A DNA stretch of 64,000 bases, taken from NCBI GenBank assembly GCA_002255585.1, contig NCBJ01000003.1, positions 21,571 through 85,570 of the forward strand, read 5' to 3'. Under the pieces are notes generated by a model. The model saw only the letters and a list, made by a program, of their open reading frames with translations. It had not been told where the DNA came from and made no database searches. The first letter of the stretch is position 1. Each line of letters starts with the position of its first letter. The position numbers and the translations under genes are program-made. Shown piece after piece: positions 10,104-46,907 of the stretch. The DNA comes from Parcubacteria group bacterium 21-54-25. Lineage in GTDB: Bacteria > Patescibacteriota > Minisyncoccia > Phycocordibacterales > Phycocordibacteraceae.

Positions 10104-10156
10104 GTGCGGTTACTTGCCGGAAGCCGGCCCACGTATGCGGTCTGCTTTTTACAGCA

Positions 10157-10516: not shown

Positions 10517-10560
10517 CTGTATTATTATCAGCATATCTGTGCGATATTTATTTATTACCT

Positions 10561-12518
<1,958 letters not shown>

Positions 12519-13218: not shown

Positions 13219-14109
13219 ATGGCCACGCTCTACACGACACAATCCGCAAACGTACGACGCACATGGCTACTCATGGGCGGGTTTCTCGTATTGGTCATTG
13301 TGGTGGGATTTGCTATCTCGTATATCTACAATTCACCCCTCATTCTCTACGTTGCCGTTGCGTTTGCGCTCCTTATGAACGTCTGGAGCTATTGGTATAG
13401 CGACCGTGTGGTACTTCGCATGACCAATGCACACCCGGCCACGCGTGAGCAATACTTTGATTTCTACACAGTGACCGAGAACCTCGCCATCACCGCCGGT
13501 CTGCCCATGCCAAAGCTCTACGTCATAGACGACCCGGCGCCAAACGCGTTTGCTACCGGCCGCGACCAAGAACATGCCGTAGTATGCGCAACGAGCGGCC
13601 TGCTCTCCATGATGGACCGCACCGAGCTTGAGGGCGTGGCGGCGCACGAGCTCTCGCACGTGAAAAACCGCGACATTCTCCTCATGACGGTGGCGGTCGT
13701 GCTCGCGGGGTTCCTTGCTATCCTCGCCGACATTTTCCTGCGTATGACGTTTTGGGGTGGGGGAGATCGCGAGCGTGGTGGAAATCAGATCGCATTCGTT
13801 CTTGCCATCGTCGGCATTATCCTCGCGCCCTTTGCCGCGCAGCTCATTCAGCTTGCCATTTCGCGTAAGCGCGAGTACTTGGCCGACGCTTCCGGTGCGC
13901 TTCTCACGCGCTATCCGGAGGGCCTGGCTTCTGCACTGCAGAAAATAGGCAGCTACAACAAACCGATGCGAAAGCCAAGCCACGCCACCGCGCATCTGTT
14001 CATCGGCGACCCATTCGGCGCCAAACCCACTGATTGGATTGAACGGCTTTTCTCTACGCATCCGCCCATTAAGGATCGCGTCGCTGCACTTCTAGGGAAC
14101 GCGCAGTAA
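13219..14109 (+). CDS. htpX: Zinc metalloprotease HtpX (M48)
   Basis: HELSHVKNRD HExxH motif, multiple TM helices, conserved lemA-htpX pair. Confidence 0.9.
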   Translation: MATLYTTQSANVRRTWLLMGGFLVLVIVVGFAISYIYNSPLILYVAVAFALLMNVWSYWYSDRVVLRMTNAHPATREQYFDFYTVTENLAITAGLPMPKLYVIDDPAPNAFATGRDQEHAVVCATSGLLSMMDRTELEGVAAHELSHVKNRDILLMTVAVVLAGFLAILADIFLRMTFWGGGDRERGGNQIAFVLAIVGIILAPFAAQLIQLAISRKREYLADASGALLTRYPEGLASALQKIGSYNKPMRKPSHATAHLFIGDPFGAKPTDWIERLFSTHPPIKDRVAALLGNAQ

Positions 14110-14118: not shown

Positions 14119-14913
14119 ATGGAAAAACGGCCCGACGTTTCGCATGAGCGCAAGAAGGACTCGCGTGAGTCTGTGGCGGAAGGAGGGGTGCTTCGCATGG
14201 TAAGTGAATCTGTGCAGGACCTGATTATCGATGTGGAGAGAGGTCGCTCTGTTTCTCTGGAAACGCTGCAGCTTGTGCAGGCGCAGCTCGAGTACGCGCG
14301 CGAACAAGTCGCAAAACGAGAACAAGCTCTCGAAGAGGCCGAGCGCACTGCACACGAGCACCGCGAAGAAGCCACAAAAGATTCGTTGACCCATCTTTTC
14401 AACCGTCGCGGTTTCATGGAAGCCCTCAGTATGAAAATAGAACGCACGAAGGAATCGCCTACGGATCTGCTCTATGCTTTTTTTATCGATCTCGATAAGT
14501 TCAAATTTGTAAACGACACGTATGGGCACGAGATGGGTGATCGCTATTTAACAATAGTTACCGCACACTTACACAAAGCCCTGCGTCCGGACGATACTCT
14601 CGCGCGTTTCGGCGGTGACGAGTTCACTGCGCTATGTTTTGTGCGTTATAAAGGCGAACAGGCAGAAGAAAGTCACGATGTGGGAGCTTCTCACATAGCC
14701 CTCCGCATTCAATATGCCCTCGACGCTGCGCGTCAAGAATTGAACGAAGAAATTAAAAGAATATTTCCCGATGCTCCACTAGCACACGATGTCGGGAGCG
14801 TCGGATATGCTTTTTATGACCCCACCGAATCTGTCGACGCCGCAGCATTTATCAGGCAAGCTGATAGACGTATGTATGAACAAAAACAAAAAGACAGTGC
14901 TGACAAGCGCTGA
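14119..14913 (+). CDS. GGDEF-domain diguanylate cyclase with an N-terminal coiled-coil
   Basis: [27 protein letters not shown], and RFGGDEF motifs. Confidence 0.8.
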
Positions 14914-16507
14914 GGGATGGTGAGAGAGTATGGTATACCGATAGGGCACGTACGTGCATGGAGAGGTGGCTGAGCGGTCGAAGGCACCGCCTTGGAAAGG
15001 CGGCGTACGGGAAACTGTACCAAGGGTTCGAATCCCTTCCTCTCCGCAGAGTCGGACGGTCAGCACTTTTCGAGAAGCATAGGAAGGGCTTCTTGGCCTC
15101 AATGCTGAGGATCCTGCCCTTTAGAGTGGGGTTCGAACCGACCGTGCTTATGATTCGCCTCTTCAGCGCGTCATCGCCCTCGGTGTACCATTTCGCGGCC
15201 CTACTGCTAAACGAGATCAGAGCCTTGGCGGGTTCGAACCATTTGCCGTCGGAGTTCGATAGCGCTTCCTGAAGACGGGCTTGTTCTTGCTGGAGCGCGG
15301 CGCGTTGTGCCGTAAATTCCTCGTCCCCGATCAAATCTCGAATCCTCAGCGTCGTCAAATTTACGAGTGCTCTCCCCGCTTCATCAGCTGCATGCTGATG
15401 TGACGCCTTTTGCTGCGCAGACACCTCTTGCTCGGCTCTGCGTGCCTTCGCCACTTGCTCGATTCCCCAGATGTGTAGGGGATCCGGTATGCGTAGCGTG
15501 GCGAGAAACTCGCGAAAGGCTTGGTCGAGCTGGGCGGCCGACAAGGAGCGCTGCCGGCAGCGGTAATCGAGTCGACGCCTACTGCAGTGGTAGTACGTAT
15601 AATGCCGGCCGTGGCGGTTGACTTTGTGTTCTGCAGTGACCATGAAGCCGCATTCACCGCAGCGTATAAGGCCGGTAAAGGGAAAGGAGTGGCGGATCGA
15701 TTGCGGTTTCCCCGGCTTGGCGAGAAGTGCCCGCACGCGATCGTGCTCGTCGAGCGTAATCATTCGGGCGTGAGCGCCAGGGTAGATTTGTCCGCCCCAG
15801 ACGAGCACGCCCGCGTAGAACGAGTTGTGCAGGATTCGATGGATACCGCCAATGGTGAGATATTTCCCACCAATACGCTTATGCTGCCGGGTTCGCAGTC
15901 CCCACGCACGGGAATGCTCCATGAGGTCACGGAGTGAATAGGTCCCGGTGAGCGCTAGGTCGAAGAGCTTCCTCACCAAAGCGAATCGGTCAGGATCTTT
16001 GACGATTGTGCGTGACGCGGGGTCATTGAGATAGCCGATCGGCGCGCCGTTGGGGCGCCATCCACGGGCTACCTTTGCGCGATTTCCGCGCTTTACATTT
16101 TCGCTCAGGTTGTCCACGTAGTACTTCGAGTACCCGAAGATGATCGAGAGCATGAACTTCCCCTGGGAGTTGTTTTCGAAGCTGAACGTGGAGAACTTGA
16201 GGTCTTTAAGCGAGCGGCGGTCGAGGAGGTAGATGATCTTCCCGCCATCCACCGAATTGCGTGCCAGGCGATCTGGGTGCCACGTGATGATCCCGTCGGC
16301 TTCCCCGCGCTCAATCCGCTCGAGCATCACGTTGAATATCGGCCGCCCCGGGGCCTTCGCGCTATACGACTCCCGTAGGACTTCAACGACCTCCACTTCC
16401 GGGCGACCCTCAAACGCCCGTTTCAACTCCGCCTCTTGCGAGTCAATGGAAAGTACTTGGCGGTCTTCCGCTTCGCTGGATTTTCGGCAATACACAAAAT
16501 ATTTCAT
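14852..16507 (-). CDS. Large serine recombinase (resolvase/invertase-type catalytic domain plus recombinase, zinc-ribbon and coiled-coil domains). The true 3' end is uncertain because the ORF reads across tRNA-Ser on the opposite strand.
   Basis: N-terminal [19 protein letters not shown]...[13 protein letters not shown] catalytic-Ser domain. Cys cluster (CGECGF...YYHC). C-terminal tail contains GRDSNPW, which is the translation of the tRNA T-arm. Confidence 0.8.
14960..15046 (+). tRNA. tRNA-Ser (anticodon GGA), type II with a long variable arm. No CCA is encoded.
   Basis: Acceptor GGAGAGG/CCTCTCC, D arm GCTGAGCGGTCGAAGGC, anticodon stem CCGCC/GGCGG with loop TTGGAAA, variable stem GTAC/GTAC, T arm AAGGG-TTCGAAT-CCCTT. 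Confidence 0.8.
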
Positions 16508-16936
16508 AGGGTTGTGAGTAACGACGATTAAACAGTACCACGCTTCTGGCGACCGCCCGAGCCACGGGGTCGGGAGGGCGCGGCGACATGTACCCAGGCC
16601 AATCAAGGGAGGCGATCACCCCCCCGGGGGGGCGAGTGAGCGTGCAGAGCCTTTCCAGGGCGCATTTGTTGACGCAATTTGTAGCGGAGCCCGCACGGCA
16701 GTAGCGGGGCGGACGGTATAGCGCCGAAATCCAGATCCGTGCGATAGAGCGTACGGACCGTAACCCAAAGGAGCTAGGGAGGGACACGAGCCGCCCGGGT
16801 GCAATTCGCCCGTATCGGTTTGCCCGACGAGAGCGTATCCCCCGGCGGCCGGAAAACGCCGCGGGGCGGGAATACGGATGCCCTCGGCAGTGTACGGCGC
16901 CTTTCTCACGTTCGCTTCTCCAGGTACCGTGGCGGC

Positions 16937-19624: not shown

Positions 19625-20536
19625 ATGGATACCGACCGTTCTTTCAAGAAGTCCGACCTCTATGCCCGGGTGACCGACCACATCATCCAGGCGATCGAAG
19701 CGGGAGCCACGGACTATGTCATGCCCTGGCATGAGCAGTCCGGGGCGGGCCTCCCCCGAAACGCCTCGACCGGAAACCTCTACCACGGGGTCAACACCGT
19801 ATCGCTCTGGACAAGTGCGTCGCGCCACGGATACGGCGTGCCGTACTGGGCGACGCTCCGACAGTGGGGTGCGCTCGGGGCCCGCGTCCTGCGCGGCGAG
19901 AAAGCCTCGCTCGTGGTCTTCTACAAGCGGGAGGAGGCGCCGGCCGACACAGAAACGAGCGAGAGCGTGGGGAAGAGGCGGGGCGTTCTCCGGGCCTCCT
20001 TCGTCTTCAATGCCCTCCAGGTTGACGGTTGGTCGCCGCCGGTACCCGAGAAGACCGATCGCACCGAGCGGCTCCAGGCGGCAGACGACCTCATCGAGGC
20101 GCTCGGGGCCGAGATCCTCTACGGGAGCACCCGCGCCTGCTACAGCCCGACCCTCGACCGCATCTTTATGCCCGGGCGTCCCCAGTTCATTGATGGAAGC
20201 ACGAGCACCGCGACCGAAGGATTCTATTCGGTCTTGCTCCATGAGCACATTCATTGGTCGGGGTACCGCACGCGGCTCAATCGAGACCTCACGGGGCGCT
20301 TCGGCGATAGCGCCTACGCCATGGAGGAGCTCGTCGCAGAACTGGGCGCGGCGTTCCTCTGCGCCGAGCTTGGCATCGAAGATCACCCGCGGCACGACCA
20401 CGCCGCGTACGTGGCAAGCTGGCTGGAGGTCCTTCGCCGGCAGAAGTCGGCAATCTTCACGGCGGCCAGTACCGCAACGGCGGCTTGCCGCTACCTCTCG
20501 GAGGTGGCAAGCCGGGTGGCCCAATCGTCCCTGTGA
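19625..20536 (+). CDS. ardC: ArdC-like antirestriction protein (N-terminal ssDNA-binding DUF1738 domain plus C-terminal zinc metalloprotease)
   Basis: ArdC_N-like N-terminus (DLYARVTDHIIQAIEAG...MPW). C-terminal LLHEHIHWSGY HExxH motif. Confidence 0.75.
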   Translation: MDTDRSFKKSDLYARVTDHIIQAIEAGATDYVMPWHEQSGAGLPRNASTGNLYHGVNTVSLWTSASRHGYGVPYWATLRQWGALGARVLRGEKASLVVFYKREEAPADTETSESVGKRRGVLRASFVFNALQVDGWSPPVPEKTDRTERLQAADDLIEALGAEILYGSTRACYSPTLDRIFMPGRPQFIDGSTSTATEGFYSVLLHEHIHWSGYRTRLNRDLTGRFGDSAYAMEELVAELGAAFLCAELGIEDHPRHDHAAYVASWLEVLRRQKSAIFTAASTATAACRYLSEVASRVAQSSL

Positions 20537-20949
20537 CCCTCCTCACCGCTGTCCTTTCCGTAGCCCGGCCGCGTGGCCGGGCTTTTTCTATCCATTCGCT
20601 TGAAGCGCCGCCGCAGCGGCAGGGTGCCGGCGTGGCAACTTTCCCCGTCTTTTTGGCGGCCTTCGTATCCGTATGCTACGGGCACGCCGCAGCCGTAGGG
20701 TGAGCGGCGTACAGATCCCACACGTTCCCACGCTCGTCCTCGTTTGGACGGGTAGCCCCCGGGAAGCCGGGGGGAAGTCGCCTGCCGTGTTGTACCACGG
20801 GGGAAAGCGTATCCATCGCATGGGCGCCACCGTTTCAACCTTCACACGGTTCCCCCCCCCTCCAGAGTGCATTGACCCCCGCTCGGGGGTCGCCCGAAGC
20901 CCGGTTCGGCGAAGCGGGCTTCCAAACGGCAACCGAGCGGAGGTGTGCA

Positions 20950-21453
20950 ATGAGCGATAAACAAGATGTACTGAGGGTCGTCGAGATGAACGGGCCGTAT
21001 GTAGCCGTCCGCGACCTTTCCCCCGACGACGTGATCGAAGCCGCCAAGAAGATCCTCAGGGCGCGTTTCCAGCGCGGGAAGAAACTTGATTGTTCCGCCG
21101 ACGCCAAGGATTATGTGATCCTCACCCTCGGCGACCGGGATCACGAGGCGTTTGCCTGCCTGTTTCTTGACACGCGCCATCGGGTGATTCGCTGCGACCT
21201 TATGGCCACCGGCTCGCTTGCGGAGGCGCGGGTGTACCCGCGGGAGGTCGTGAAGCGGGCACTACTCTACAACGCAGCCGCGGTGATTTTCGCCCACAAC
21301 CATCCCTCGGGCGTCGCCGAGCCGAGCAAGGGCGACAAGGCGCTCACGGACCGGCTCGCAAGCGCTTTGCAGCTCATCGACGTACAGGTACTCGACCACC
21401 TTGTCGTGGGCGGTGACGAGACCGTGAGCTTTGCCGATCGCGGGATGTTATGA
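20950..21453 (+). CDS. radC: RadC-like JAB/MPN domain protein
   Basis: HNHPSGVAEPSKGDKALT JAMM motif with an upstream E and S. The start is moved to the ATG at 20950. Confidence 0.85.
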   Translation: MSDKQDVLRVVEMNGPYVAVRDLSPDDVIEAAKKILRARFQRGKKLDCSADAKDYVILTLGDRDHEAFACLFLDTRHRVIRCDLMATGSLAEARVYPREVVKRALLYNAAAVIFAHNHPSGVAEPSKGDKALTDRLASALQLIDVQVLDHLVVGGDETVSFADRGML

Positions 21454-22207: not shown

Positions 22208-23104
22208 TCACAACCAGTGCCGGAGTCCTAACAGCACCGCGCTAACCACTACCGTAACGAGAGCACCAATGACGGCGGCAAAAATCGCAATCTTAACAGT
22301 TCGGCGGTGATCTTTCTGTTGCTCCAACTGACCGAATCTGGATTCGATTTTGACGAAGTCTCGATGAAGGTCTTGGTCGCCGCTGACTCTAAGACTTTTT
22401 TCGTTCTCGAGACCGTCTGTTAGTTTCTTCACCTCTTCCTTCAGGGCCCGGATACCTTGCAACACATTTCCAAGGTCTTCCCTGAATTCCTTCTTCCAGT
22501 CGTCTTGCTCTCGGACCTCGTTCTTAAGAGAGGTAACTTCTTGTTGCGTAGCCCGGATGGCGTCTCGGAGCCCCTCTAGCCTGATCGGCTGATAGTTCTG
22601 CATGAGACGCACGACGTCGTCCGGGAAGTCCGAGATTGATTCCGGCTGAGGAAACGTATCGATCTCCCCCTCCTCAAGGACATAGAAGACGGCCGCGATG
22701 AGTTTTTTGCGCGGCCGTAATGGCCATCGTGTCGTTGAGAAGTTGTAAAGGCCGACGAGCAGATTCCCCCGGTAGAGCGGATCGATGAAAAATCCCCCGA
22801 GAACAAGGATCCCTTCGTGGCTGAGTTTCCGCTTGGGGCTCAGCATTGCAGCCATGGTGTTTGGCAGATTAAGGACTTCTTCCGTAAGGACAAACGCGAC
22901 TTCGCCTGGATCAATGAAGAGCGCGCTGCGCTGCGTCTCGGTTAGTTTCATCACATCAATCGGTCCACCTCCCGCTTTGAGGAGCCGATTGCCCATCCTA
23001 AGGTCGTACTTCGCTCCTTCTACGCACGTCTCCTCGCCGCCTCGAATGAAAGTTTGGTCCCGGACCGCCGCAAGAAGACGTTGTCCCGTGACTATTGTTG
23101 GCAT
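22208..23104 (-). CDS. dCTP deaminase/dUTPase-fold (Dcd-like) domain fused to a ~70-aa coiled-coil and a C-terminal transmembrane anchor
   Basis: GAKYDLRMGN...IDPGEVAFVLTEEVLNLP...SPKRKLSHEGILVLGGFFIDPLYRGNLLVGLYNFS is colinear with Dcd motifs. Then heptad-rich KNEVREQDDWKKEFREDLGNVLQGIRALKEEVKKL and a terminal hydrophobic helix. The start is moved to the ATG at 23104. Confidence 0.6.
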   Translation of the reverse strand: MPTIVTGQRLLAAVRDQTFIRGGEETCVEGAKYDLRMGNRLLKAGGGPIDVMKLTETQRSALFIDPGEVAFVLTEEVLNLPNTMAAMLSPKRKLSHEGILVLGGFFIDPLYRGNLLVGLYNFSTTRWPLRPRKKLIAAVFYVLEEGEIDTFPQPESISDFPDDVVRLMQNYQPIRLEGLRDAIRATQQEVTSLKNEVREQDDWKKEFREDLGNVLQGIRALKEEVKKLTDGLENEKSLRVSGDQDLHRDFVKIESRFGQLEQQKDHRRTVKIAIFAAVIGALVTVVVSAVLLGLRHWL

Positions 23105-23340
23105 TGTAATGGCGCCTCCCGTGTCTTGGACGTGCTGCGGAGTACCGTCGACCCGTCCATCGGTTTGTTTGCGTGGGGTCATGGCTTTTTCCTCCTTGTT
23201 GAACTGACCGGCAGAACACCACGAGAACCGTGCCGTGCTGCCGGCAGTTCGCAAGAAGAACCACCCCGCGATCTTTCCGCGTCAAAGAGCTACCCAAGAA
23301 CCAGTATATCAGGTAAAAAATTTCAGGAACGCAACCGGAC

Positions 23341-23883
23341 ATGAAGGATGCTGCGGCCAATTCAGTCCTCGTGCTTGCCGTGAGTCCCGTGGCCCGTGGG
23401 TTTGCGTATGCCGCTTTCGAGGGTCCGCAGACGCTTCTTGACTGGGGACGAAAGGAGGCGCGCGTCAACCGCTACGCGTACGCGCGCCGGGAGCTTGCGG
23501 TTCTAGTCGGCTGGTACCGGCCGGAGCTCGTGGTGCTTGAGGGGGCTCGGCGCCACGAGGTCGAAGCGTTCGTCGATCAGTTTGAGCGGCATGCGCGCGC
23601 GGGCTATTCGCACCGAGCGGTTTGGCCAGCAGCGGGTTGCGGAGGTGTTCTCGGAGTTTGGCGCCACCCGGAAGTTCCAGCGCGACCGACTGCTCGGGCA
23701 ATGGTTCCCGGAGCTTGCGGGCGTGGTCAGAATGCGCCCGCCAACCTCGACGACAGAGCGCTGCGCCGCGAATGCATTCGACACCATCGCTCTCGCGCTC
23801 GTCCACTTCTACCTCGCCGCCTGATCGGGCAGGCCCGCTCGGGGACCGAACGAAGTCCAGTTCGAAGGAACCGGGCTTCGTGA
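23341..23883 (+). CDS. RuvC/YqgF-like resolvase-like protein, paralog of 18985..19506. The first catalytic Asp is replaced (LVLAVSPVARG).
   Basis: AFEGPQTLLDWGRKEARVNRYAYARRELAVLVGWYRPELVVLE parallels VFEGPLRLVDWGVKETRENKNRAGIQKIGELLALYHPSVLVIE in copy A. Confidence 0.4.
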   Translation: MKDAAANSVLVLAVSPVARGFAYAAFEGPQTLLDWGRKEARVNRYAYARRELAVLVGWYRPELVVLEGARRHEVEAFVDQFERHARAGYSHRAVWPAAGCGGVLGVWRHPEVPARPTARAMVPGACGRGQNAPANLDDRALRRECIRHHRSRARPLLPRRLIGQARSGTERSPVRRNRAS

Positions 23884-23909
23884 CGGCAACGGAGCAGGAG
23901 ATAGGCACG

Positions 23910-24413
23910 ATGAGCGAGAAACGGGAAGTGTTCCGTCGTGTGGAGACCGATGGCCCCTGCACGGCCATACGCGAGCTCACGCCCGACGAGGTGATCGGGG
24001 AAGCGAAGCGGATCATCAAGGCGCGCTTCCGGCGCGGGCGCAGGATCGCCCAGCCCAGGGACGCCGAGGATTACCTCATCCTCACCCTTGGCGACCGCGA
24101 GCAGGAGGTCTTCTCCTGCCTCTATCTCGACCAGCGCCACCGGGTAATCAGCTGCGACCTCATGGCCTTCGGCACCCTGGCCGAGGCCCGAGTCTACCCG
24201 CGGGAGATCGTCAAACGAGCCATCCTTTACAACGCGAGTTCGATCATCTTCGCCCACAACCATCCCTCGGGCGTCGCCGAGCCCAGTAAGGACGACGAGG
24301 CGCTCACGCGCCGACTTTCCGACGCCCTTCGCCTCATCGACGTCCGCGTACTCGACCACTTCGTCGTAGGGGGAGGCGAGACGGTGACCTTCGCCGAGCG
24401 CGGGTTGCTGTGA
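23910..24413 (+). CDS. radC: RadC-like JAB/MPN domain protein (second copy, ~70% identical to 20950..21453)
   Basis: HNHPSGVAEPSKDDEALT motif and the same length (167 aa). Confidence 0.85.
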   Translation: MSEKREVFRRVETDGPCTAIRELTPDEVIGEAKRIIKARFRRGRRIAQPRDAEDYLILTLGDREQEVFSCLYLDQRHRVISCDLMAFGTLAEARVYPREIVKRAILYNASSIIFAHNHPSGVAEPSKDDEALTRRLSDALRLIDVRVLDHFVVGGGETVTFAERGLL

Positions 24414-25444: not shown

Positions 25445-27220
25445 ATGCGCGCGCAGAATATGAGTATGAGCTTAACTCGCCAACACGTGCTCGATTTGGA
25501 AGACTACAAGGTGCGACCGGCGTTATCCCCGATCGTGCAAAATGCCGTTGATGTCTTGGCCAGCGCGCATGGGACAGAGCGTGGGGCTATCTACACCCGC
25601 CAGGAAGTCGTGGAGTTTATTCTCGATCTCGTTGGGTACACAACGGATCATCCACTTCATGAGGCGCGATTGCTGGAACCCTCGGTGGGCGAGGGCGACT
25701 TTCTCGTTCCAGCGGTTAAGCGTCTGCTGGCTTCCTACGCAACCAGCCGTCGTCCGCACTCGGCGCTTGTGGATGACCTCGCTCCCGCGCTCACGGCGGT
25801 CGAGCTGCATTCCGACAGTTTGACGCTAGTCAAGGAGAAGGTTCTTGGCGTGCTCGGCGAATTTGACGTTACGGGGCCTTCGGCGCGCCAGTTGCTCGAT
25901 GCTTGGCTGAGTAACGGCGACTTCCTCCTTACAAACCTTCCCCGTCCATTCACGCATGTTGTGGGTAATCCGCCGTATGTCCGGCAGGAGCTCGTCCCCG
26001 ACGCGCTCCTGCAAGAGTACCGGCGGCGATACGAAAGCATCTATGATCGGGCGGATCTGTATGTGCCATTCATCGAGCGCTCGCTAACGTCCCTTGAGCC
26101 GGGTGGCGTTGTGGGCTTTATATGTACAGATCGATGGATGAAGAATCGGTACGGAAAGCGGCTTCGGCAGATCATTTCTGAGGGCTACCACCTCCGCAGC
26201 TATGTCGACATGGTTGGGACGGACGCATTCCATTCCGATGTCACGACCTATCCGGCAATTACCGTGATCGCGCGCGAGAAGGCGGGCCCCACGCGGCTTG
26301 CAGGGCAGCCTAAGATCGATCGGGACTCGTTGCGTCAGCTCGCCGAGCTGATGAATGCAAGGCAAATCGCACCCGACGGCCCTGTCGCTGAACTAGCGGG
26401 GGTCGTCGACGGCGCAGATCCCTGGCTGCTGCAATCTGCCGATCAGCTCCAGGTGGTCCGGCGCCTAGAGCAGGAGTTTCCGATGCTCGAAGAAACGGGT
26501 TGCCAGGTAGGTATTGGCGTTGCAACTGGTGCCGATCGGGTGTTCGTAGCCCCGTTCGAGGAGCTGGACGTTGAGCCATCCCGCAAGCTGCCACTGGTGA
26601 TGACGAAGGACATTGCTTCGGGAGTGGTGAAGTGGCGGGGGTTCGGCGTCGTGAATCCCTTTGAGGCGGACGGCCAGCTGGTGGATCTTGCGGCTTACCC
26701 GCGGCTACGGCGGTATCTTGAGCACCACCGGGACACGGTCGCGCGTCGTAATTGCGCGACGAGACATCCGAATGGCTGGTACCGGACGATTGACCGGATT
26801 TACCCTGAGCTAGCCACGACGCCAAAACTCCTAATTCCAGATATCAAGGGTGAAGCGAACGTAGTATACGAGAGCGGGAAGCTCTATCCTCACCACAACC
26901 TGTATCACGTGACCTCGAAAGCGTGGGATCTTCGGGCGCTTCAGGCAGTCCTGCGCTCCTCGGTTGCGAAGCTCTTCGTGTCGACGTACTCAACCCGGAT
27001 GCGCGGAGGCTATTTGCGGTTTCAGGCGCAGTACCTTCGCCGTATTCGGATCCCTCAGTGGGATGAGGTACCAGACGACCTCCGGAGGAGTCTCACTGAG
27101 GCCGCAAAGTCGGGTGATACCGAAGCATGCAACCGCGCGGTATTTGTGCTCTATAGGCTGACACAAGAAGAACAAGCCGCAATTGGTGGCAGCGGAGCCC
27201 AAGATCGATATGACAATTGA
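25445..27220 (+). CDS. N6-adenine DNA methyltransferase (gamma class, Eco57I/TaqI-like family), the modification subunit of a Type II R-M system
   Basis: Motif [11 protein letters not shown]-terminal AdoMet-binding region. 591 aa with a C-terminal target-recognition region. Confidence 0.8.
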
Positions 27221-27947
27221 CCTCGCGGATTTCGATACCAAGGCACGGGAGGCGATTAAGGCGTTCTGGGGAAACCGCGAGGCGGCGCGCCAGCGGCAGA
27301 TCGCACAAGGAAAAGCGGACCAAGGAGAGCGGGCGGGTGTCACGGCGGGCAAGAACATGGACGGTTTCGTGTTGCTCGCGCAGGACATCGTACGCCAAAA
27401 CGGCTTACCGCACGCCGACATTTTCCTTAAGCGACGTGTCCTCACCCTCCCAGGCTATTTTCGTCCGACTAAGCAATGGGACATGCTCGTGATGAACCAA
27501 GGCCGCCTTGTGGCTGCCATTGAATTCAAGAGCCAGGTGGGGCCCTCTTTCGGGAATAACTTTAACAATAGGACAGAGGAGGCGATTGGCACCGCTCTCG
27601 ACCTACGAACCGCGTTCCGAGAAGGTGCCTTTGGGGATAGCCAGGCTCCATTCGTCGGTTGGTTGATGTTGGTCGAAGACTGTGAAGGTTCTCGATCTCC
27701 GGTGCGGGATCGCTCCCCCCACTTCCCGGTATTCGCAGATTTCCAAGGCTCCTCGTACGCGGATCGCTATAACATCCTGTGCAGGAAGCTTGTCCAGGAA
27801 CAGCTGTATACGGCAGCGTCGGTGATTATCTCCAGCCGATCCGCGGTTGACACCGGAGCCTTCGCAGAGCTGCTACCGTTGACTGGCTTGCGGACGTTCG
27901 TAGCAAGCTTGGGAGGACACGTTGCGGCCGAGGCGGCTCGGGGCTGA
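27210..27947 (+). CDS. Type II restriction endonuclease (PD-(D/E)xK). Its start overlaps the MTase stop by 11 nt.
   Basis: [21 protein letters not shown] carries D...ExK. The M-then-R layout and sizes (~590/245 aa) resemble PaeR7I/XhoI-type systems. The family is not confirmed. Confidence 0.5.
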
Positions 27948-28716: not shown

Positions 28717-30486
28717 ATGGAAGACCCGCTCATGCAAATGCCCGTTGCCTCTACTGTCGAGTCGCAGAAAAACCAAGTCGCTTTCCTATTTGGCGCGGGG
28801 GCGTCAATGGAAGCGGGCGTTCCTGATACCGTGTCGCTAATCAACGAATTCCGTGTGAAAGATGACGATGCTAATGTCAGCGAATTTCTGGAACTGCTTG
28901 GCAGATGGGCTAAGCAGCAGGATCGTCCTCTTGATATAGAACTCGTCCTCGAAACACTCCAGCGTCTGGCCGACTGGAAAGAAGACCCGTTGTCAGGGTT
29001 TGCGGACAAACCAATCAAGATCGACGGGCTGGATGCCCAAACGCTTCTCAACCGACTACGGGATTTCATAAAAAATAAGGTCTTGGTCGATGCCGAGCAT
29101 ATTACCTATCTGGAACCGCTCCGCGGCTTCATCGACGCATACCGACCCCTCCATCTCTACTCCGCGAACTACGATACCGCTATCGAGGTGCTCTGCGCCG
29201 AGCACAAACTGAAATACCGGGACGGATTTGATGAGGCATGGAATCCCGCTCTCTTAGATGAGCCGAACGTTGATCTCCGTCTATTCAAGCTTCATGGCTC
29301 GGTGACGTGGTATCGAAGCAACCGTGGGCGATTTTTGAAAATCCCGGTCCTGCTCCACGACAGCTCCGTCGAATTGGTGACTAAGGAACGCGCTGAAGCC
29401 CTAATGCTTTACCCCGCACAGAAATTCGAGTATGTGGAGCCACTGTTTGAACTGTTGCTGGCCGCCAAGCGGCGGTTAGCGGAGAGTCAGGTGTTAATCG
29501 TGGTCGGCTACTCATTTCGGGACGAGCATATTCGTCAGTTGCTATGGGATATAGCCCGCGAATCGCCCAGGTTCATCGTCATTCTGATCGGACCCAAGGC
29601 ACGAGATATTTATCAAGAGCGACTCAAATGGTACGAACGAGACAGGATCCCCTCGGCGCTCCAGGGGCGGGTGCTCTGCCTCCCTTTTTTGTTCGGGAGG
29701 GTCTTTCCCGCGCTGCAACCGGAATTGTTACCACGGGTGCTCCAGTTTCGCGAGGACTTGGAGCAACAGTTAGCACAGGAGCGACGAGGTCATCCTGGGA
29801 TTTGGGAGGGTGCTGTGCTGAATGCGGCTCGCGGCGGAGATTACGAAGTAGTCCGCAGAATCCTAGAAAAGCCGCAGGTGTTAGCGCAACAGCTCAACTA
29901 TGCGCAACAATTTGATTGCCTGGTTCTAAGCCTTTTCCATGCGGCTGCAAACAGCGATGTTGTCGCAGGAAGATATTTCTGGGACAAGCTGCATGATACG
30001 TTGCGAGAGATCATTGACCGTATCACTCTCAACGTACAATTCGGCGGATCTTCCAGCTGGCTCGTAGTGTCCGTTAATAAAAACAACCGAAGCGAGAATT
30101 TTCAGAATCTTATCCGCGGGCTTGCGGCTCCGCATCAGGAGATAGATCGGCGGCGTCGGTGGATGGGTGATGCCGAGTCCTCATCAGAATACCTGCGGGC
30201 GGTGAATCGGGTCTTAACGGATCTACAGAGTGCGATGCAGATCTGGTCCAACGTAGGGCAAGTCGCGCCGAGCGACTATGCGGCAGCACGCCAACAGGAA
30301 ATTCCAGGGGATCTAAAGGGGGAGATTCTGGATAAACTTGATCGGTTGCGGGAAAAAAATTCCGAGTCCTGGTCGGACGTCGACGAGCGGCAACTAGAGC
30401 AGGGGCTCAGGGGAACCGAACAAGCCGTCATTAACAAGGTGTTTCAGGAGTTAGACCAGTTGTGGGGCGAGAATAGGGAATTGTAA
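28717..30486 (+). CDS. SIR2_2-family (defence-type sirtuin-like NADase fold) protein with a ~300-aa helical C-terminal domain
   Basis: VAFLFGAGASMEAGVP (Rossmann Gly-rich), LYSANYDTAIE (catalytic Asn), FKLHGSVTW (catalytic His), VVGYSFRDEHI, as in ThsA/DSR SIR2 domains. Confidence 0.75.
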   Translation: MEDPLMQMPVASTVESQKNQVAFLFGAGASMEAGVPDTVSLINEFRVKDDDANVSEFLELLGRWAKQQDRPLDIELVLETLQRLADWKEDPLSGFADKPIKIDGLDAQTLLNRLRDFIKNKVLVDAEHITYLEPLRGFIDAYRPLHLYSANYDTAIEVLCAEHKLKYRDGFDEAWNPALLDEPNVDLRLFKLHGSVTWYRSNRGRFLKIPVLLHDSSVELVTKERAEALMLYPAQKFEYVEPLFELLLAAKRRLAESQVLIVVGYSFRDEHIRQLLWDIARESPRFIVILIGPKARDIYQERLKWYERDRIPSALQGRVLCLPFLFGRVFPALQPELLPRVLQFREDLEQQLAQERRGHPGIWEGAVLNAARGGDYEVVRRILEKPQVLAQQLNYAQQFDCLVLSLFHAAANSDVVAGRYFWDKLHDTLREIIDRITLNVQFGGSSSWLVVSVNKNNRSENFQNLIRGLAAPHQEIDRRRRWMGDAESSSEYLRAVNRVLTDLQSAMQIWSNVGQVAPSDYAAARQQEIPGDLKGEILDKLDRLREKNSESWSDVDERQLEQGLRGTEQAVINKVFQELDQLWGENREL

Positions 30487-30891: not shown

Positions 30892-30986
30892 TTCCCCTTA
30901 GGAGTGGAAAGGTCGCTGTGCAACCTATTGAACTCGTGATGGATAAATGGCACCATCACAAAACCATCACACGAGAACCGGCACTC

Positions 30987-31997
30987 ATGGCCACCTTCCG
31001 GAAAATGGCATCCGGCCACTGGCAAGCGATCGTGCGGCGCAAGGGCTACCCGCACGCCGCGCGTACCTTCCGCACCAAGGCGCTCGCAGAGCGCTGGGCA
31101 CGCGGTATCGAGAACAGCATCGACGAGGGCGAGTATGCGGCCGCCTCCCGCATATCCGTTGGCGAACTTCTCGCTCGCTACGAGGAGCGCTTCACGCCAG
31201 CCAAGCGATCCCGCGTGAAGGAGAGGTCCCGAATCAAGACACTGACCCGGCACCTCGGCGAACTGCCGCTCTCCGTCCTCACGCCAGAGGCCATCGTCTC
31301 CTACATTGAGGACCGGTTGGAAGAGGTGGCTTCCGATACAGCGCGCAAGGAGCTGCACACGCTCTCCGTCATCGTGGACACCGGCATGGCGCTTTGGGAG
31401 ATCGGCCTGCGCGTGAATCCGGTGGTGGTCGCCAAGGCCATCCTGCACGCCACGAAACTCCTCAAGCCCGGGGTGAAGCGCGAGCGCCGGCCGACCCCCA
31501 AGGAGCTTGCGGCACTGGCGAAATCGAGCCACTGGCCGCTGTGGGAGTATGCCATCGAGACGGCCATGCGCCGCGGCGAGATCGCAGTGCAGCGGCGCGA
31601 ACACCGATCCGGAAACGTGCTGCATATTCCGCAGACGAAGACCGACCAGCCCCGTACCATTCCTCTGTCGCGGCGGGCCATGGAGATCCTCGACGGCCTG
31701 CTGGAGCGCGGCGACGGCGCGGTTTGGGGCATTACGGCCGACGCCATGACCCGCGCGTTCGCGCGCGAGTGCCGGGCGGCCAACATCGCCGACCTGCGCC
31801 TGCACGACCTGCGGCACGAAGGAACGTCACGGCTGTTCGAGAAGGGATGGACCATCCCGCAGGTGGCGGCGGTCACCGGCCATTCGGACTGGTCCTCCCT
31901 GAAGCGCTACACCAAGCTGAACCCGTCGCGGCTGGCGGCGAAGCTGGGTCGACGTGGCAAACGCCGCCAGGCCCGGGCCGACCTCTCGGATGGTTAA
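30987..31997 (+). CDS. int: Tyrosine recombinase/phage-type integrase
   Basis: C-terminal LHDLRHEGTSRLFEKGWTIPQVAAVTGHSDWSSLKRYTKL (R...HxxR...Y catalytic box). N-terminal SAM-like arm. Adjacent to the tRNA fragment. Confidence 0.85.
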   Translation: MATFRKMASGHWQAIVRRKGYPHAARTFRTKALAERWARGIENSIDEGEYAAASRISVGELLARYEERFTPAKRSRVKERSRIKTLTRHLGELPLSVLTPEAIVSYIEDRLEEVASDTARKELHTLSVIVDTGMALWEIGLRVNPVVVAKAILHATKLLKPGVKRERRPTPKELAALAKSSHWPLWEYAIETAMRRGEIAVQRREHRSGNVLHIPQTKTDQPRTIPLSRRAMEILDGLLERGDGAVWGITADAMTRAFARECRAANIADLRLHDLRHEGTSRLFEKGWTIPQVAAVTGHSDWSSLKRYTKLNPSRLAAKLGRRGKRRQARADLSDG

Positions 31998-32226: not shown

Positions 32227-33399
32227 ATGAACAACACCGAGGATTCGAATTGGTTCGATGACTACGCCGAGGGTGTAGATGACCTCCAAGTCGAGGAGTA
32301 CGACATAACGGCTTCTCCAAACGATTTCAATGTCATGACCCTTCATAGCTTCGTTGAGTCTGGAGCAGTACGCATCCCTGGCTTTCAGCGCAACTTCGTT
32401 TGGGACCTCGGGCGAGCGTCAAAACTCATAGAATCCCTGATCCTGGGTTTGCCGGTGCCGCAGCTCTTCCTCTACGAGCAGGCACGCAACAGGTTCCTGG
32501 TTATCGACGGACAACAACGGCTCATGTCCATCTACTACTTCATCAAGAAACGCTTCCCTCGGAAGGAGAAGCGGGTTGAGCTTCGCGCGATCTTCGATCG
32601 TGAGGGCCGGATTCCTGACGAGATACTTCATGAAGATGAGTACTTCCAGACCTTCAACTTAAGGCTACCGGAGCGGCTGCCAAATCACGAGAACAAGTTC
32701 AAGGGCCTGAACTATGCAACACTCGGCGAATACAAGGCGCAGTTTGATCTTAGGCCAATCCGGAACATAGTGGTGAAGCAGAATGCTCCTTCAGGAGATG
32801 ATTCATCAATGTATGAGGTCTTCAACCGACTCAATTCTGGCGGCATCAACCTGCGGCCGCAGGAGATCCGCACCAGCATGTATCATTCTGCATTCTATGA
32901 AATGCTGTACCACATCAACGCGGAGCCGGGGTGGCGGAAGATACTGCAGTGGTCTGAACCGGACCTACATATGAAGGACATCGAGATCCTTCTGCGCGGT
33001 TTCGCTATGCTCATCGATGGCGAGCACTACGCGCCATCGATGGTGAAGTTCCTGAATCAGTTCTCAAAGAAATGCGAAACGCACGATGCACAGCAGAACA
33101 CCTATCTCCGTGATCTGTTCTTTTCGTTCCTCGGCGCGTGTCACGATCTTCCGGACGACGCGTTCGTGAACAAGAAGAACAAGCGGTTCAATATCGCTCT
33201 TTTCGAGGCTATCTTCTCGGCCTCATGCGAACGCGCATTCGGCGAACGACGCCCGGTCGCGGGTGAACTACAGCGTGAGGCCATCGAAGCGCTCGAGACA
33301 GATGAGGAGTTTCTCGAAGCGGCACTTGAAGGAACAACGCGAACGGTCAATGTACAGAAACGCCTCAGCCGAGCACGGGAAATCGTGGGCGCAATGTAG
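32227..33399 (+). CDS. DUF262 (ParB-like/GmrSD N-terminal-type) domain protein
   Basis: IPGFQRNFVWDLGRASKLIESLILGLPVPQLFLYE...FLVIDGQQRL (DGQQR motif). Confidence 0.8.
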   Translation: MNNTEDSNWFDDYAEGVDDLQVEEYDITASPNDFNVMTLHSFVESGAVRIPGFQRNFVWDLGRASKLIESLILGLPVPQLFLYEQARNRFLVIDGQQRLMSIYYFIKKRFPRKEKRVELRAIFDREGRIPDEILHEDEYFQTFNLRLPERLPNHENKFKGLNYATLGEYKAQFDLRPIRNIVVKQNAPSGDDSSMYEVFNRLNSGGINLRPQEIRTSMYHSAFYEMLYHINAEPGWRKILQWSEPDLHMKDIEILLRGFAMLIDGEHYAPSMVKFLNQFSKKCETHDAQQNTYLRDLFFSFLGACHDLPDDAFVNKKNKRFNIALFEAIFSASCERAFGERRPVAGELQREAIEALETDEEFLEAALEGTTRTVNVQKRLSRAREIVGAM

Positions 33400-43007: not shown

Positions 43008-43379
43008 ATGGACAGCCACTCATCAGATCATGCCGCTGGCGAGCGCGCTGATCTAGAGACCACGAGAACCGTCCTCAGATATCAACTCGCTGCCCTTATT
43101 GCGAAGCTCCTCGGAGTGGCATTATGGATATTTTTTGCGGTGGTTTGGCCGTTAAAGATAACCGCGGGTAAGACCACTATCGTTAATGTCCTTTTCCATA
43201 TGATCGCGAACGTACACGCATCGGTAGCGATCTCGTGGGCAACGACAGCGGGGTTCGGATATCTCTGGGTTCGTGAACGACGTATTCGTAAGAAGAGTGT
43301 AAGGCGTGAACACGTCCGCATAGTGGAATTAGAGCAACTTCTAGATCCGAATCGATCCTCAAGTGGAATCGACGAATGA
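43008..43379 (+). CDS. Hypothetical membrane protein
   Basis: 123 aa with 3 hydrophobic helices. Confidence 0.35.
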   Translation: MDSHSSDHAAGERADLETTRTVLRYQLAALIAKLLGVALWIFFAVVWPLKITAGKTTIVNVLFHMIANVHASVAISWATTAGFGYLWVRERRIRKKSVRREHVRIVELEQLLDPNRSSSGIDE

Positions 43380-43529: not shown

Positions 43530-44141
43530 ATGAGCGTGTCTGATCATGTGCTCATTGTGGAGGTATGCGTTAGCGTTGCGTTGCTGTGGTTTGCGTATTC
43601 CTTCATGTTCCAGAAAACCCGCACCGACGCATTCCAAGAAGATTTATTTACCATCCGCGATGAGCTCTTCGATTATATGTCGAGGTACAATGTACCATTC
43701 GACCTTCCCGCGTACCGTGCGATGCGTGACCTGCTTAACGGAGCTATCCGCGTTGCGCATTTCCTCAGCCTTTTCTCGATCGTGTACGCAGGCGTTGTGC
43801 GGTCTAGGAGTGCCGTATCTCCAAACACCGTCCAACTCGCAATAGGCAACATTGACGATACCGATGTGAGGGAACACTACCAGTACGTATATCTGAAGGT
43901 TCAGAAGCGCTTTTTGCAGTACTTCTTTCTGGAAGGGCTGCGTAGTCTCATCTTTACGCCTCTGTATCGCTATATGAAGCGACTAGGAATGAGGCCGCGC
44001 GTGCGCGCATTCGTTAGTGGTATGCGAAACGAACTCCTGGAGGAATTCGTCCAGTTCGGCAAAAAGGATTCGCTGGGGGCGCATATCTTACTGGCCGTGA
44101 CACGTGGCCAACGTCATCGTAAATCGTCAAAGGCAGCCTAA
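43530..44141 (+). CDS. Hypothetical protein with an N-terminal TM helix
   Basis: 203 aa with no recognised motif. A terminator-like GCCAACC-agggatg-GGTTGGC lies downstream. Confidence 0.4.
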   Translation: MSVSDHVLIVEVCVSVALLWFAYSFMFQKTRTDAFQEDLFTIRDELFDYMSRYNVPFDLPAYRAMRDLLNGAIRVAHFLSLFSIVYAGVVRSRSAVSPNTVQLAIGNIDDTDVREHYQYVYLKVQKRFLQYFFLEGLRSLIFTPLYRYMKRLGMRPRVRAFVSGMRNELLEEFVQFGKKDSLGAHILLAVTRGQRHRKSSKAA

Positions 44142-44362: not shown

Positions 44363-44869
44363 ATGATTAACGCTGCTCTGCTCGAAACGGTCAGTGACGA
44401 GAGCGATGCGCGGCCTCCGGTATTTTGGGCTCTAGACCCGCGCCTACCACGGATCGCAGCCCAAGCAGCAGTTGAATTTGACTGGCTTGTGCAACAGAAG
44501 ACCGGTAACAATCTTCCGCATGTCTCTCGCGAAGCAATCAATGCACTTCACTTGCTATTGAGCGAGTCTACGGGGACCGCTCAGCCGGGTGGTCCAGACA
44601 ACAAGGGGTTCGTCGATACGCTAGGGCTAAATCTATTTGCCAAAGCGTATAACGCGTCGCACACGGGCCATCCTGTACGCACCCGAGACGAGTTGGATAC
44701 CGCAATGCGGCAGCTCGTAGACTCACTTTATCGGGCTGGGGAGAATAACGAGCTTGCCGAGAACATCTTGGCCGATATGCGGGATTTTTGTGCGAAACTT
44801 TCTGACTATGGTTCCGCCTATCGCAAGATGATTTACGGTAGCCGACAAGAACATCCTTACAGGAAGTAG
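44363..44869 (+). CDS. Hypothetical protein
   Basis: 168 aa, low-GC, immediately upstream of the HExxH/Dcd-like pair. Confidence 0.4.
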   Translation: MINAALLETVSDESDARPPVFWALDPRLPRIAAQAAVEFDWLVQQKTGNNLPHVSREAINALHLLLSESTGTAQPGGPDNKGFVDTLGLNLFAKAYNASHTGHPVRTRDELDTAMRQLVDSLYRAGENNELAENILADMRDFCAKLSDYGSAYRKMIYGSRQEHPYRK

Positions 44870-44949
44870 TGCTCGGCGCGCACATAACACACAATCAGCA
44901 GCCAATGTTTACGACTGAAGAACTGGATTAGAAGGTCCAGTTCTTTTTT

Positions 44950-46233
44950 ATGTTGGACTGGAGTTCGGAGCAGGAGGGCCGGCTGATGACGCCAGTCGAC
45001 TGTGCGAAGCAGAAGGTCAGTGCTGTAATTGATACCATCAATTCTGTACGCGAGCTCGATTTTCCGTACGAGCCTCCGCGCGAAGCGGTAGATTTTATTC
45101 GTAACATTTTCAGCGACCATCTCCAGCACCTAGACGGTATTTCAGCGGGGGGAACAGCCGCTCGCACCATGTGCAGGCAGGTTTCCGAAGATATTGATAA
45201 TTTCCTACTTGCTGTCGGCTTCATGGTGCGCGCCTGTGACAACCATGGCGCACTTGAGTTGCAAAGGCCACTGATGAGGCTGACACATCGAGCGATCGCC
45301 CCCCAGATAAAACTCATCATCTCTTCAGACTGGCGTTTTTCACCCTTCACTCTCTTATATCCCGGAGAATTCGGGGATAAGTTTGTCCTGGTTGGTCTTC
45401 CGATTTCCGAGGCGAGTAATCCACTCATAGCTCCCCTTGCCGGACACGAGCTAGGGCACAACATTTGGCGACGTCTGCCAGCATTCAATGTTCATATAAG
45501 CGAACAAGTAAAAAGCAAAGTGACCGAAACGATCAAGTCAGGCTTATGGGAGGAGTTTTCGAAGGCGTTCAACTTGAAGAACAAGGAAGACATAGATCAG
45601 GACGATCTCTTTGGAGCTATTTCTCCGTGGCAGCTAGCGAAAGTTTGGGCGCTATCACATTGCGAAGAGATGTTCTGCGATTTTATCGCGCTTACGATAT
45701 TTGGAGAAGGCTATCTGCATGCCTTCCAATACTTAATATCACCCGGCGGCGGCTTCCGAAATCCCACCTATCCCAGCATGCGAGATCGTATCGCTGCGTT
45801 AGTCGTGGCGTGTCAGGGGATCGGACTTACCGTTTCGAGAGGGTTTAGCGAGGAGTTTGATGAGTCGGACGTAAGCTCCGACCATCGGCAGCAGCTTCTC
45901 CTGCAAGTAAGTGACGATGTGTCACGAAGCCTGACAACCGACCTCGCCGAAGCAGCCAAGACTTGGTGCGAACAGCGGGGCGTAATCAATCGAAATCCCA
46001 ACGATGTCAATCGTATTGTATCGCTATTCAAGCGCGTCATTCCGGCCACCGGTGCTGAGAGTTTGGCAGATATAATCAATGCAGCTTGGTGCATTTATCT
46101 AGATCCCGTGAATCCGTGGGAGCACGACTACCCAATTACGAATAAACCGGAACGGCGAGCGTCGCTTACTCGCGAGCTTGCCCTGAAAAGCTTCGAGGTG
46201 TTTGAGATCGAAAGAACGCAGGAGGATACGTAA
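44950..46233 (+). CDS. HExxH zincin-like metallopeptidase-domain protein (AGHELGHNIW plus downstream Glu)
   Basis: A single HELGH motif at ~residue 165 with acidic residues ~50 aa later (HCEEMFCDF). Its stop overlaps the start of the Dcd-like gene (ATGA at 46231-46234). Confidence 0.45.
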   Translation: MLDWSSEQEGRLMTPVDCAKQKVSAVIDTINSVRELDFPYEPPREAVDFIRNIFSDHLQHLDGISAGGTAARTMCRQVSEDIDNFLLAVGFMVRACDNHGALELQRPLMRLTHRAIAPQIKLIISSDWRFSPFTLLYPGEFGDKFVLVGLPISEASNPLIAPLAGHELGHNIWRRLPAFNVHISEQVKSKVTETIKSGLWEEFSKAFNLKNKEDIDQDDLFGAISPWQLAKVWALSHCEEMFCDFIALTIFGEGYLHAFQYLISPGGGFRNPTYPSMRDRIAALVVACQGIGLTVSRGFSEEFDESDVSSDHRQQLLLQVSDDVSRSLTTDLAEAAKTWCEQRGVINRNPNDVNRIVSLFKRVIPATGAESLADIINAAWCIYLDPVNPWEHDYPITNKPERRASLTRELALKSFEVFEIERTQEDT

Positions 46234-46907
46234 TGCCTCTATCCGCAAACGAGATTGCGAGACATCTAGATGGCGCCCCTGACCTGGCTGTCGAGGAACA
46301 ATTTGTGTTGGCGCCACGGCCGAGTACCACTAACATACGCGAAAAAGGGGCGGCGTCCGTAGATCTGAGGTTAGGCACATGGTTTGTTACGACTAAAGCC
46401 AGCCGTCACTCTCTACTCGATATTTACGCAGACGAAGCGCAACAGCCTCCTGAGCACAACCTAACGGATAGGCACTACATACCGCTTGGGAGTTACTTTA
46501 TTTTGCATCCACATTCATTTGTTCTAGCGGGAACGTTGGAGTGGATAAAGATGCCCAAAGGTTTGTGTGGGTACATTACGGGAAAGTCATCATGGGGCAG
46601 AAGAGGCCTTATCATCGAGACAGCACCCGGTATCCATCCTGGCTTCGCGGGCTGCCTCACGCTCGAGCTTGCGAATGTCGGAGAAATACCGATAAAGCTT
46701 GTTACTGGTACTGCTGTGTGCCAGCTGTTCTTGCACGAGATGGTCGGCCAAGTAAATAATGTAGATCCAAGTAGTTTCCTCGGACAAAGGCAGCCGACGC
46801 TCGGCAGGGTAACACCAGATGAGTTCGTATTGAGGCTGATGCGTGCATCAACATCGGCGACCAGTCACAACACAAAAACTGCCGATACATCAGGCTCACA
46901 ATCTTGA
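46233..46907 (+). CDS. dCTP deaminase/dUTPase-fold (Dcd-like) protein
   Basis: SVDLRLG...FILHPHSFVLAGTLEWIKMP...GKSSWGRRGLIIETAPGIHPGFAGCLTLELANVGEIPIKLVTGTAVCQLFLHEM is colinear with E. coli Dcd motifs. Confidence 0.75.
   Translation: MPLSANEIARHLDGAPDLAVEEQFVLAPRPSTTNIREKGAASVDLRLGTWFVTTKASRHSLLDIYADEAQQPPEHNLTDRHYIPLGSYFILHPHSFVLAGTLEWIKMPKGLCGYITGKSSWGRRGLIIETAPGIHPGFAGCLTLELANVGEIPIKLVTGTAVCQLFLHEMVGQVNNVDPSSFLGQRQPTLGRVTPDEFVLRLMRASTSATSHNTKTADTSGSQS

Follow-up and report, generated by a model that had tools for sequence, protein, structure and literature searches.

A strictly linked, mobile three-gene cassette joins a predicted M48-like peptidase to a divergent Dcd-fold protein and may be a latent conflict system

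Protease-licensed immune effectors are known from several bacterial systems, among them gasdermin with its protease, CalpL-CalpT-CalpS, ImmA/ImmR, and CapP/CapH. A second point of comparison is the anti-phage dCTP deaminase, a single protein of 576 amino acids (aa) in which a kinase domain is joined to a zinc-dependent, Cys-liganded cytosine deaminase domain (Tal et al., 10.1101/2021.04.26.441389). The zinc-dependent cytosine deaminase fold is structurally unrelated to the Dcd/dUTPase fold. We take AvcD-type deaminases to belong with this anti-phage enzyme. Here we describe a locus in a 64,000-nucleotide (nt) stretch of contig NCBJ01000003.1, analyzed as a whole and called the window below, where a Dcd-fold protein is encoded directly behind a HExxH protein with the motif set of M48 peptidases. 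A first-pass annotation of this DNA had singled out the two genes as a module and did not know the pairing as a described system; we likewise found no described system that combines a peptidase with a Dcd protein in PADLOC, Pfam, NCBIfam, or the literature, newer DefenseFinder models and subscription journals lying outside the scope of these searches. We find that the unit has three genes, which we name in their order A (a 168-aa helical protein), B (the M48-like HExxH protein), and C (the Dcd-fold protein), and we tentatively read it as a latent anti-phage or anti-invader conflict cassette of the abortive type, in which C would be the effector and A and B its gate.

All three genes of the window cassette lie on the forward strand. 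Gene A (44363..44869) comes first and encodes a soluble helical protein, gene B (44986..46233) a cytosolic HExxH protein, and gene C (46233..46907) a 224-aa Dcd/dUTPase-fold enzyme translationally coupled to B. The open reading frame (ORF) of B is open from 44950, and the 427-aa product first annotated (44950..46233) is therefore present as a frame, but the true start is most likely the ATG at 44986, which yields 415 aa: the public gene call (P0001) uses it, the sequence GGAGGG lies 9 nt 5' of it, and a hairpin with its T-run ends at 44946, just 5' of the ATG at 44950. This terminator-like hairpin (44917..44946, forward strand), with a stem of 13 base pairs followed by the T-run, occupies the 116-nt gap between A and B. 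The two closest relatives of the window cassette (L068 and L070) have a hairpin and T-run at the same position, with stems of different sequence; most other loci have A and B abutting or overlapping, and an A-B hairpin was seen in the window clade only, where it would favor an excess of A. An Rfam scan of the cassette region gave no match. At the other junction the sequence reads ACG TAA TGC, so that the stop TAA and the start ATG share one base; this 1-nt overlap (TAATG) replaces the ATGA overlap previously given for the pair. The low-GC setting noted at first pass was evident, GC being 0.51 across 43-47 kilobases (kb) and 0.61 and 0.63 in the two flanks. The three small ORFs noted upstream of the pair were also found (123, 203, and 168 aa), but the third of them is gene A, a core member of the cassette and not a bystander.

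To define the unit, we scanned one genome per species, 185,579 species genomes in all, with a profile of B and recovered 61 loci spanning at least ten phyla. Carriers include Acidobacteriota, Planctomycetota, Verrucomicrobiota, Nitrospirota, Gemmatimonadota, Bacteroidales, and Saccharimonadales, together with Alpha-, Gamma-, and Deltaproteobacteria, among them Rhizobium, Bradyrhizobium, Mesorhizobium, and Bosea. A homologue of A stood directly 5' of B in 58 of the 61 loci (two of the three exceptions had no upstream sequence), and C stood directly 3' of B in about 55 of them, the exceptions being nearly all contig ends or truncated copies. A reverse test was started from C, with the best 80 of 421 metagenome matches, and loci with at least 300 nt of upstream sequence were counted as testable: all 76 of them had B directly upstream of C, with A present too where room allowed. 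When all flanking ORFs of the cassette loci were clustered, no recurrent gene emerged besides A, B, and C, and the flanks varied from lineage to lineage. The B family as a whole is larger: a word-indexed search returned 112 clusters of homologues, all about 415 aa long and none named or with a Pfam domain, and an exhaustive profile search returned 1858 clusters at 50% identity with E ≤ 1e-3, 704 of them with E ≤ 1e-30.

The three proteins also diverge in step. Pairwise identities correlated with r = 0.85 between B and C and r = 0.79 between A and B, values that none of 2000 Mantel permutations equaled, while mean identity was 25% for A, the fastest evolving, 35% for B, and 49% for C. Among 123 distinct B-C junctions, a 4-nt overlap of the ATGA type was the commonest arrangement (66 cases) and a 1-nt overlap accounted for 12; one true in-frame fusion of B and C was found (P0112, 665 aa), with A upstream. 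These data confirmed that the pair is co-inherited, as the first-pass annotation had supposed, and co-occurs far beyond this DNA; the B-C pair is real, but the two-gene module proposed from it has to be extended by A. Together, A-B-C is a strictly conserved three-gene unit, and it is horizontally mobile, accessory, and self-contained at about 2.5 kb. The concern that the Dcd-like gene might be the housekeeping dcd, kept in conserved synteny, was not borne out. Conserved synteny and near-universal presence within a lineage, which mark a housekeeping dcd, are both absent for C, and its obligate linkage to A and B, the fusion, the sporadic distribution, the varying flanks, and the loss of a superfamily-invariant residue (below) show that it is a different gene.

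Several individual loci were set apart. A second apparent B-C fusion, L033 (7968-9854), was rejected as a frameshift artefact in a long-read metagenome-assembled genome (MAG), in which the B profile breaks off at 391 and gives way to a junk linker; split B or C genes were not used as evidence of decay either, as most come from long-read MAGs, which are prone to indel errors. At L038 (9227-10825), about 1 kb of inserted DNA interrupts the C gene; it carries a 292-aa ORF (9419-10297) and may be an insertion element. In two different assemblies (L074 and L075, about 7300-11900), the cassette occupies the same chromosomal site, after HNH and APH/fructosamine kinase genes and near priA and argS, which indicates vertical inheritance within that lineage.

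The assignment of C to the Dcd/dUTPase fold, already made at first pass, was strongly upheld. C matched the Pfam DCD family (PF22769) at 4.5e-31 and 108.5 bits (cut-off 27) and the NCBIfam dCTP_deam model TIGR02274 at 110.2 bits (cut-off 92.8); its best match among solved structures was 4xjc (1e-24), with E. coli Dcd at 1e-19, and it also matched phrog_1663. By sequence, C belongs to the dCTP deaminase family of the Dcd/dUTPase superfamily. We aligned 46 family members to E. coli Dcd, whose numbering is used for the family. The deamination residues Ser111, Arg115, and Glu138 were kept in all 46; in the window protein they are S119, R123, and E145, within the catalytic segment at 46587..46667 (forward strand). 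Other diagnostic positions set C apart from both known subtypes. Asp128 (Asp119 in M. tuberculosis, Mtb) is conserved throughout the superfamily and contacts the 3'-OH and the catalytic water (PMC3360063); in the C family this position is His in 43 of 46 members and Gln in the other 3, and in the window it is H135 (46635-46637, forward strand). Arg126 of monofunctional dCTP deaminases sits in the nucleophile-water site and blocks dUTP hydrolysis, and bifunctional dCTP deaminase:dUTPases combine an aromatic residue at 126 with the catalytic Asp and Gln148 in Mtb numbering (PMC3360063). All 46 C proteins, that of the window included, have Gly at 126, and all 46 have Gln at 157, as do dUTP-hydrolyzing members. 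The monofunctional Arg is missing, and of the bifunctional set the Gln is present, but 126 is Gly and the Asp has become His. On paper, C is therefore deaminase-competent with neither the mono- nor the bifunctional signature.

C resembles E. coli Dcd and M. tuberculosis Rv0321 (4xjc) in fold, family, and the three deamination residues, and shares Gln157 with the dUTP-hydrolyzing members; unlike either, it has Gly at 126, obligate partners in A and B, no housekeeping synteny, and a sporadic distribution. RefSeq nevertheless names the Rhizobium orthologue 'dcd, dCTP deaminase', beside two hypothetical proteins (the plasmid annotation of A, B, and C runs hypothetical, hypothetical, 'dcd'), and this pipeline label is misleading in metabolic reconstruction.

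B carries the HELGH motif reported for it at first pass, at 45445..45459 (forward strand; H154, E155, and H158 in the 415-aa numbering). The motif is invariant in 41 B homologues of 26-66% identity, so this is no chance HExxH. Further invariant residues of B include E228 and D232, in a candidate third zinc ligand motif E228-x3-D232 (EEMFCD, 45667..45681, forward strand), and P263 and R268, in P263-x4-R268 (YPSMRDRI, 45772..45789, forward strand), the counterpart of the M48 motif HPxxxxR. The invariant residues of four E. coli M48 paralogues (HtpX, BepA, LoiP, and YcaL) are H139, E140, H143, E222, D226, P277, and R282: HExxH, E-x3-D, and P-x4-R follow each other in B and in M48 in the same order with the same internal spacing, and hhalign set HELGH against the HEISH of the E. 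coli M48 peptidases with the other two motifs in register. B therefore has the full M48 set (HExxH, the Glu in ExxxD, and HPxxxxR) except that Tyr stands for His before the Pro. The AF2 model of B (pLDDT 91.8) is nearly all helical, apart from a two-stranded sheet that immediately precedes the HELGH helix, and on reading, the sequence has no signal peptide and no membrane segment. A Pfam search placed C in PF22769, as described, and returned nothing for B, which also matched no NCBIfam, PHROG, or PADLOC model; PDB sequence searches, with the single sequence and with a profile, gave chance matches only (haemoglobin and UvrB). We predict that B is probably an M48-like gluzincin peptidase. Compared with HtpX, BepA, LoiP, YcaL, and Ste24/ZMPSTE24, it would be a cytosolic variant, with large N- and C-terminal helical domains in place of membrane or periplasmic features.

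A has conserved features at both ends, namely an N-terminal LAxxAAIExD and LRxFCxALS near the end, and is most striking at its last residues. In the window it closes with RQEHPYRK-COOH (44843..44866, forward strand), an instance of the family motif R-P-x-H-P-[FY]-R-[RK], which falls exactly at the free C-terminus in about 60% of 108 distinct A proteins. Counted from the chain end across these 108, His occupies -5 in 53, Pro -4 in 63, Phe or Tyr -3 in 65, Arg -2 in 64, and Arg or Lys -1 in 64. That the motif is held at the very C-terminus suggests recognition of the chain end itself, possibly by a groove of B. Searches of A against Pfam, NCBIfam, PHROGs, and PADLOC gave nothing usable, and a second homologue search meant to enlarge its alignment added only five sequences. 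The window A protein (P0113) is identical to an NCBI record filed under 'Parcubacteria group bacterium 21-54-25'; the window also carries genes for GroEL, RpoB, G6PD, and RNase J at about 52-54% GC, and the record's taxonomic label may be unreliable.

These features can be assembled into a working model, in which we infer an active peptidase in B, its substrate or inhibitor in A, a nucleotide substrate for C, a trigger, and a defense phenotype. C would be a divergent cytosine-nucleotide deaminase of the Dcd fold and the effector of the cassette; once released, it would deaminate dCTP or a close cytosine nucleotide, and DNA synthesis would be starved of dCTP, possibly with a flood of dUTP. B would be a zinc peptidase of M48-like type, cytosolic and physically coupled to C. 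A, the fast-evolving helical protein, would offer its conserved free C-terminal tail to the peptidase as a substrate or pseudo-substrate, and A and B would jointly form a gate that keeps C silent until the trigger arrives.

The surroundings of the window cassette are those of a mobile island. The region from about 14.8 to 48 kb is an integrative or conjugative element, with a serine recombinase (14852-16606, reverse strand) at one end, ArdC (19625-20536), two RadC genes (20872-21453 and 23622-24413), a type II methylase (25445-27220) and an XhoI endonuclease (27183-27947), a SIR2-like protein (28717-30486), a tyrosine integrase (30918-31997), and a GmrSD/NsnA-like protein (32227-33399); two TrwB-type coupling proteins and Replic_Relax and RP-C genes are also encoded. 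Upstream of the cassette lie two forward-strand genes for proteins with two and one transmembrane (TM) segments (43008-43379 and 43530-44141), in the order of the first two genes of the PADLOC system 2TM-1TM-TIR. Their matches to Rst_2TM_1TM_TIR were weak (E of 0.011 and 3.7e-4; phrog_13156 5e-13) and no TIR gene is present, and we rejected that identity; we also rejected them as cassette members, as no other A-B-C locus has the pair.

A genuine M48 peptidase is encoded at 13219-14109, immediately beyond the recombinase end of the island. Within the island, in a GC dip between the two RadC genes, is a second, unrelated Dcd-fold protein (22208-23254, reverse strand; PF22769 1.4e-9; best PDB match 9ln0, 4e-9). 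Gly stands at the position of its catalytic Glu (..LLVGLYN). After the Dcd domain come a coiled coil and a membrane helix at the C-terminus, and the C-terminal part weakly matched PADLOC LeoC.

Elsewhere, the closest relatives of the window cassette are found on conjugative elements, beside ArdC, RadC, and coupling-protein genes, and on ten conjugative Rhizobium plasmids the neighbors of the cassette are a Fic gene and a gene cluster for S8 peptidase, trypsin-like peptidase, and AAA ATPase. One Rhizobium copy, on R. phaseoli pRetR611c, comprises AMC85_RS25365-RS25355. In four loci (L073, 6041-11874; L070, 5965-9260; L027, 2507-5981; and the P0036 contig), the cassette adjoins Bub-type ubiquitin-like operons (Multi_ubiq, E2, and ThiF-E1) with helix-turn-helix (HTH) and Peptidase_M78 (CapH/CapP-like) regulators; at L073 the eight genes all run in one direction with tight spacing. 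Operons of this type have been reported in mobile elements and defense loci, with phage protection not yet shown for them. The cassette was absent from 50,697 phage records and present in 3 of 2.9 million viral contigs. In a Verrucomicrobiaceae MAG (L160, 9575-11948), it is inserted into the ribosomal spc operon, in the same direction as the operon and between its L24 and L5 genes, with no convincing terminal repeats around the insertion; a cassette inside a ribosomal operon must be harmless in its resting state. At L159, a protein with the Acb2/Tad1 hairpin domain (PF24729; 6074-6382), a family of anti-defense nucleotide sponges, is encoded 3.6 kb upstream of the cassette in a 2.9-Mb contig.

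Several lines of evidence converge on a latent conflict cassette. Linkage in both directions (58/61, about 55/61, and 76/76), overlapping junctions, the P0112 fusion, and co-evolution argue for a single functional unit. Its spread over at least ten phyla in only 61 of 185,579 genomes, with no conserved flank, a presence on conjugative plasmids and elements, and a near absence from viruses argue for mobility. Its company, an XhoI restriction-modification system, SIR2, and a GmrSD/NsnA-like protein in the island and Bub-type operons at four loci, together with PADLOC matches at 1e-8 for about 12 of the 191 genes that lie no more than two genes away, points to defense. The invariant S111/R115/E138, with both the Arg126 block and the superfamily Asp128 lost, is consistent with an effector, and the fastest-evolving protein with a register-fixed C-terminal motif is consistent with a gate.

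A number of observations weigh on the other side. No PADLOC model matches A, B, or C. The first-pass annotation had cited anti-phage dCTP deaminases as a precedent, and this stands as a functional analogy only, not as homology, as the folds are unrelated. The predicted fold of A is an uninformative helical bundle with no HTH match. For B, no recurrent Pfam family, PF01435 included, appeared in 41 aligned members scanned at E ≤ 5, and Foldseek found no match of its model in the PDB. With hhalign, the full-length protein aligned to the four E. coli M48 proteins through the HExxH helix alone (probability 4.8%), and B trimmed to its core brought the three motifs into register with five M48 sequences at P 5.7e-4 and a probability of 30%, which is not significant; the peptidase assignment is statistically weak and not secure. 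The His-for-Asp change makes the substrate and the product of C, dUTP or dUMP, uncertain and its sugar specificity unpredictable. Finally, many loci have purely housekeeping flanks. Enrichment in defense islands is not clear-cut: the context is defense-rich at the window, L070, L073, and L027, but not at these many other loci. The enrichment is modest and crudely measured, and we rate it weak to moderate.

Much of this evidence could also describe a unit that secures its own retention. As an addiction cassette akin to toxin-antitoxin (TA) systems, C, or B with C, would be the toxin and A a labile antidote made in excess, with post-segregational killing and selfish retention as the outcome in place of phage protection. 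A small autonomous cassette that can stand alone among housekeeping genes without a recombinase, or beside a Fic module on large conjugative plasmids, would suit that role, as would the position of A as the first and fastest-evolving gene and, in the window clade, a terminator-like hairpin after A that would give it in excess. Set against this, a TA system would not typically have three components, one of them a 415-aa peptidase-like protein, A has no recognizable DNA-binding fold for autoregulation, and the window cassette lies among defense genes. We consider addiction unlikely as the explanation, yet it overlaps with the conflict cassette, since many TA-like modules also act in defense, and anti-phage or anti-invader defense is hard to separate from it.

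The fusion and tight coupling of B and C are typical of consecutive enzymes or subunits, and the Asp-to-His change in the sugar pocket could mean a non-standard substrate. The cassette might then be a two-enzyme pathway of nucleotide or DNA modification, or serve the establishment of mobile elements or anti-defense, with C converting a cytosine nucleotide, B a metal-dependent hydrolase or processing enzyme, and A an accessory subunit; the ArdC, RadC, and coupling-protein genes of conjugative elements beside the closest clade would fit. Most loci, however, are chromosomal and without conjugation genes, no gene for a thymidylate synthase, glycosylase, polymerase, or any other modification function is conserved along with it, phages, in which pathways of this kind are frequent, essentially lack the cassette, and the motifs of B are those of a peptidase, which leaves this option distinctly improbable. 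Least plausible is ordinary accessory metabolism, in which C would be an extra dCTP deaminase feeding dUTP or dUMP to thymidylate synthesis next to unrelated A and B. C does score above the NCBIfam dCTP_deam equivalog cut-off and is called 'dcd' in RefSeq, its deamination residues are intact, and some loci lie among housekeeping genes; but C is obligately linked with A and B, whichever gene the search starts from, a B-C fusion exists, the distribution is sporadic with variable flanks, and the superfamily Asp is lost together with both the mono- and bifunctional signatures. We regard this explanation as very improbable.

A latent conflict cassette thus remains the reading that we tentatively favor. 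A narrower form of it, a widespread and unnamed three-component immune system in which the M48-like peptidase licenses the Dcd-fold deaminase by processing the A tail, is a doubtful proposition at present. If it were true, C would be the first Dcd-fold immune effector and B the first M48-type protease to act as an immune switch, and His in place of Asp may alter the chemistry or substrate, for example toward dUTP overproduction or a modified cytosine nucleotide. Whether the cassette acts in defense or in addiction, either role would mean that attack on the nucleotide pool was invented a second time, with a fold unrelated to that of the known anti-phage dCTP deaminases, and that a new type of control exists, an M48-like peptidase with a tail-bearing partner. 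Of the three protein families, two are unannotated in the libraries searched, that of B alone comprising some 1,900 clusters at 50% identity, and a self-contained cassette of 2.5 kb that is present on plasmids of culturable Rhizobium is directly testable.

Like the anti-phage dCTP deaminase, which is marked by phage-triggered depletion of dCTP, the cassette is found in mobile or defense contexts, and its proposed outcome, a loss of dCTP that blocks DNA synthesis of the invader, is the same; unlike that single gene with its kinase domain and zinc fold, an architecture that C does not have, the cassette consists of three genes, C has the Dcd fold only, and no PADLOC model matches it. Nor are B and A an ImmA/IrrE (M78) peptidase with its XRE repressor: B did not match Peptidase_M78 (PF06114), and A is no HTH repressor. 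The protease-licensed systems in general use proteases of caspase-like, Lon-like, and M78 families and other effectors. What the cassette would have in common with them is the arrangement itself, a protease gene set beside an effector or regulator, with cleavage as the proposed switch.

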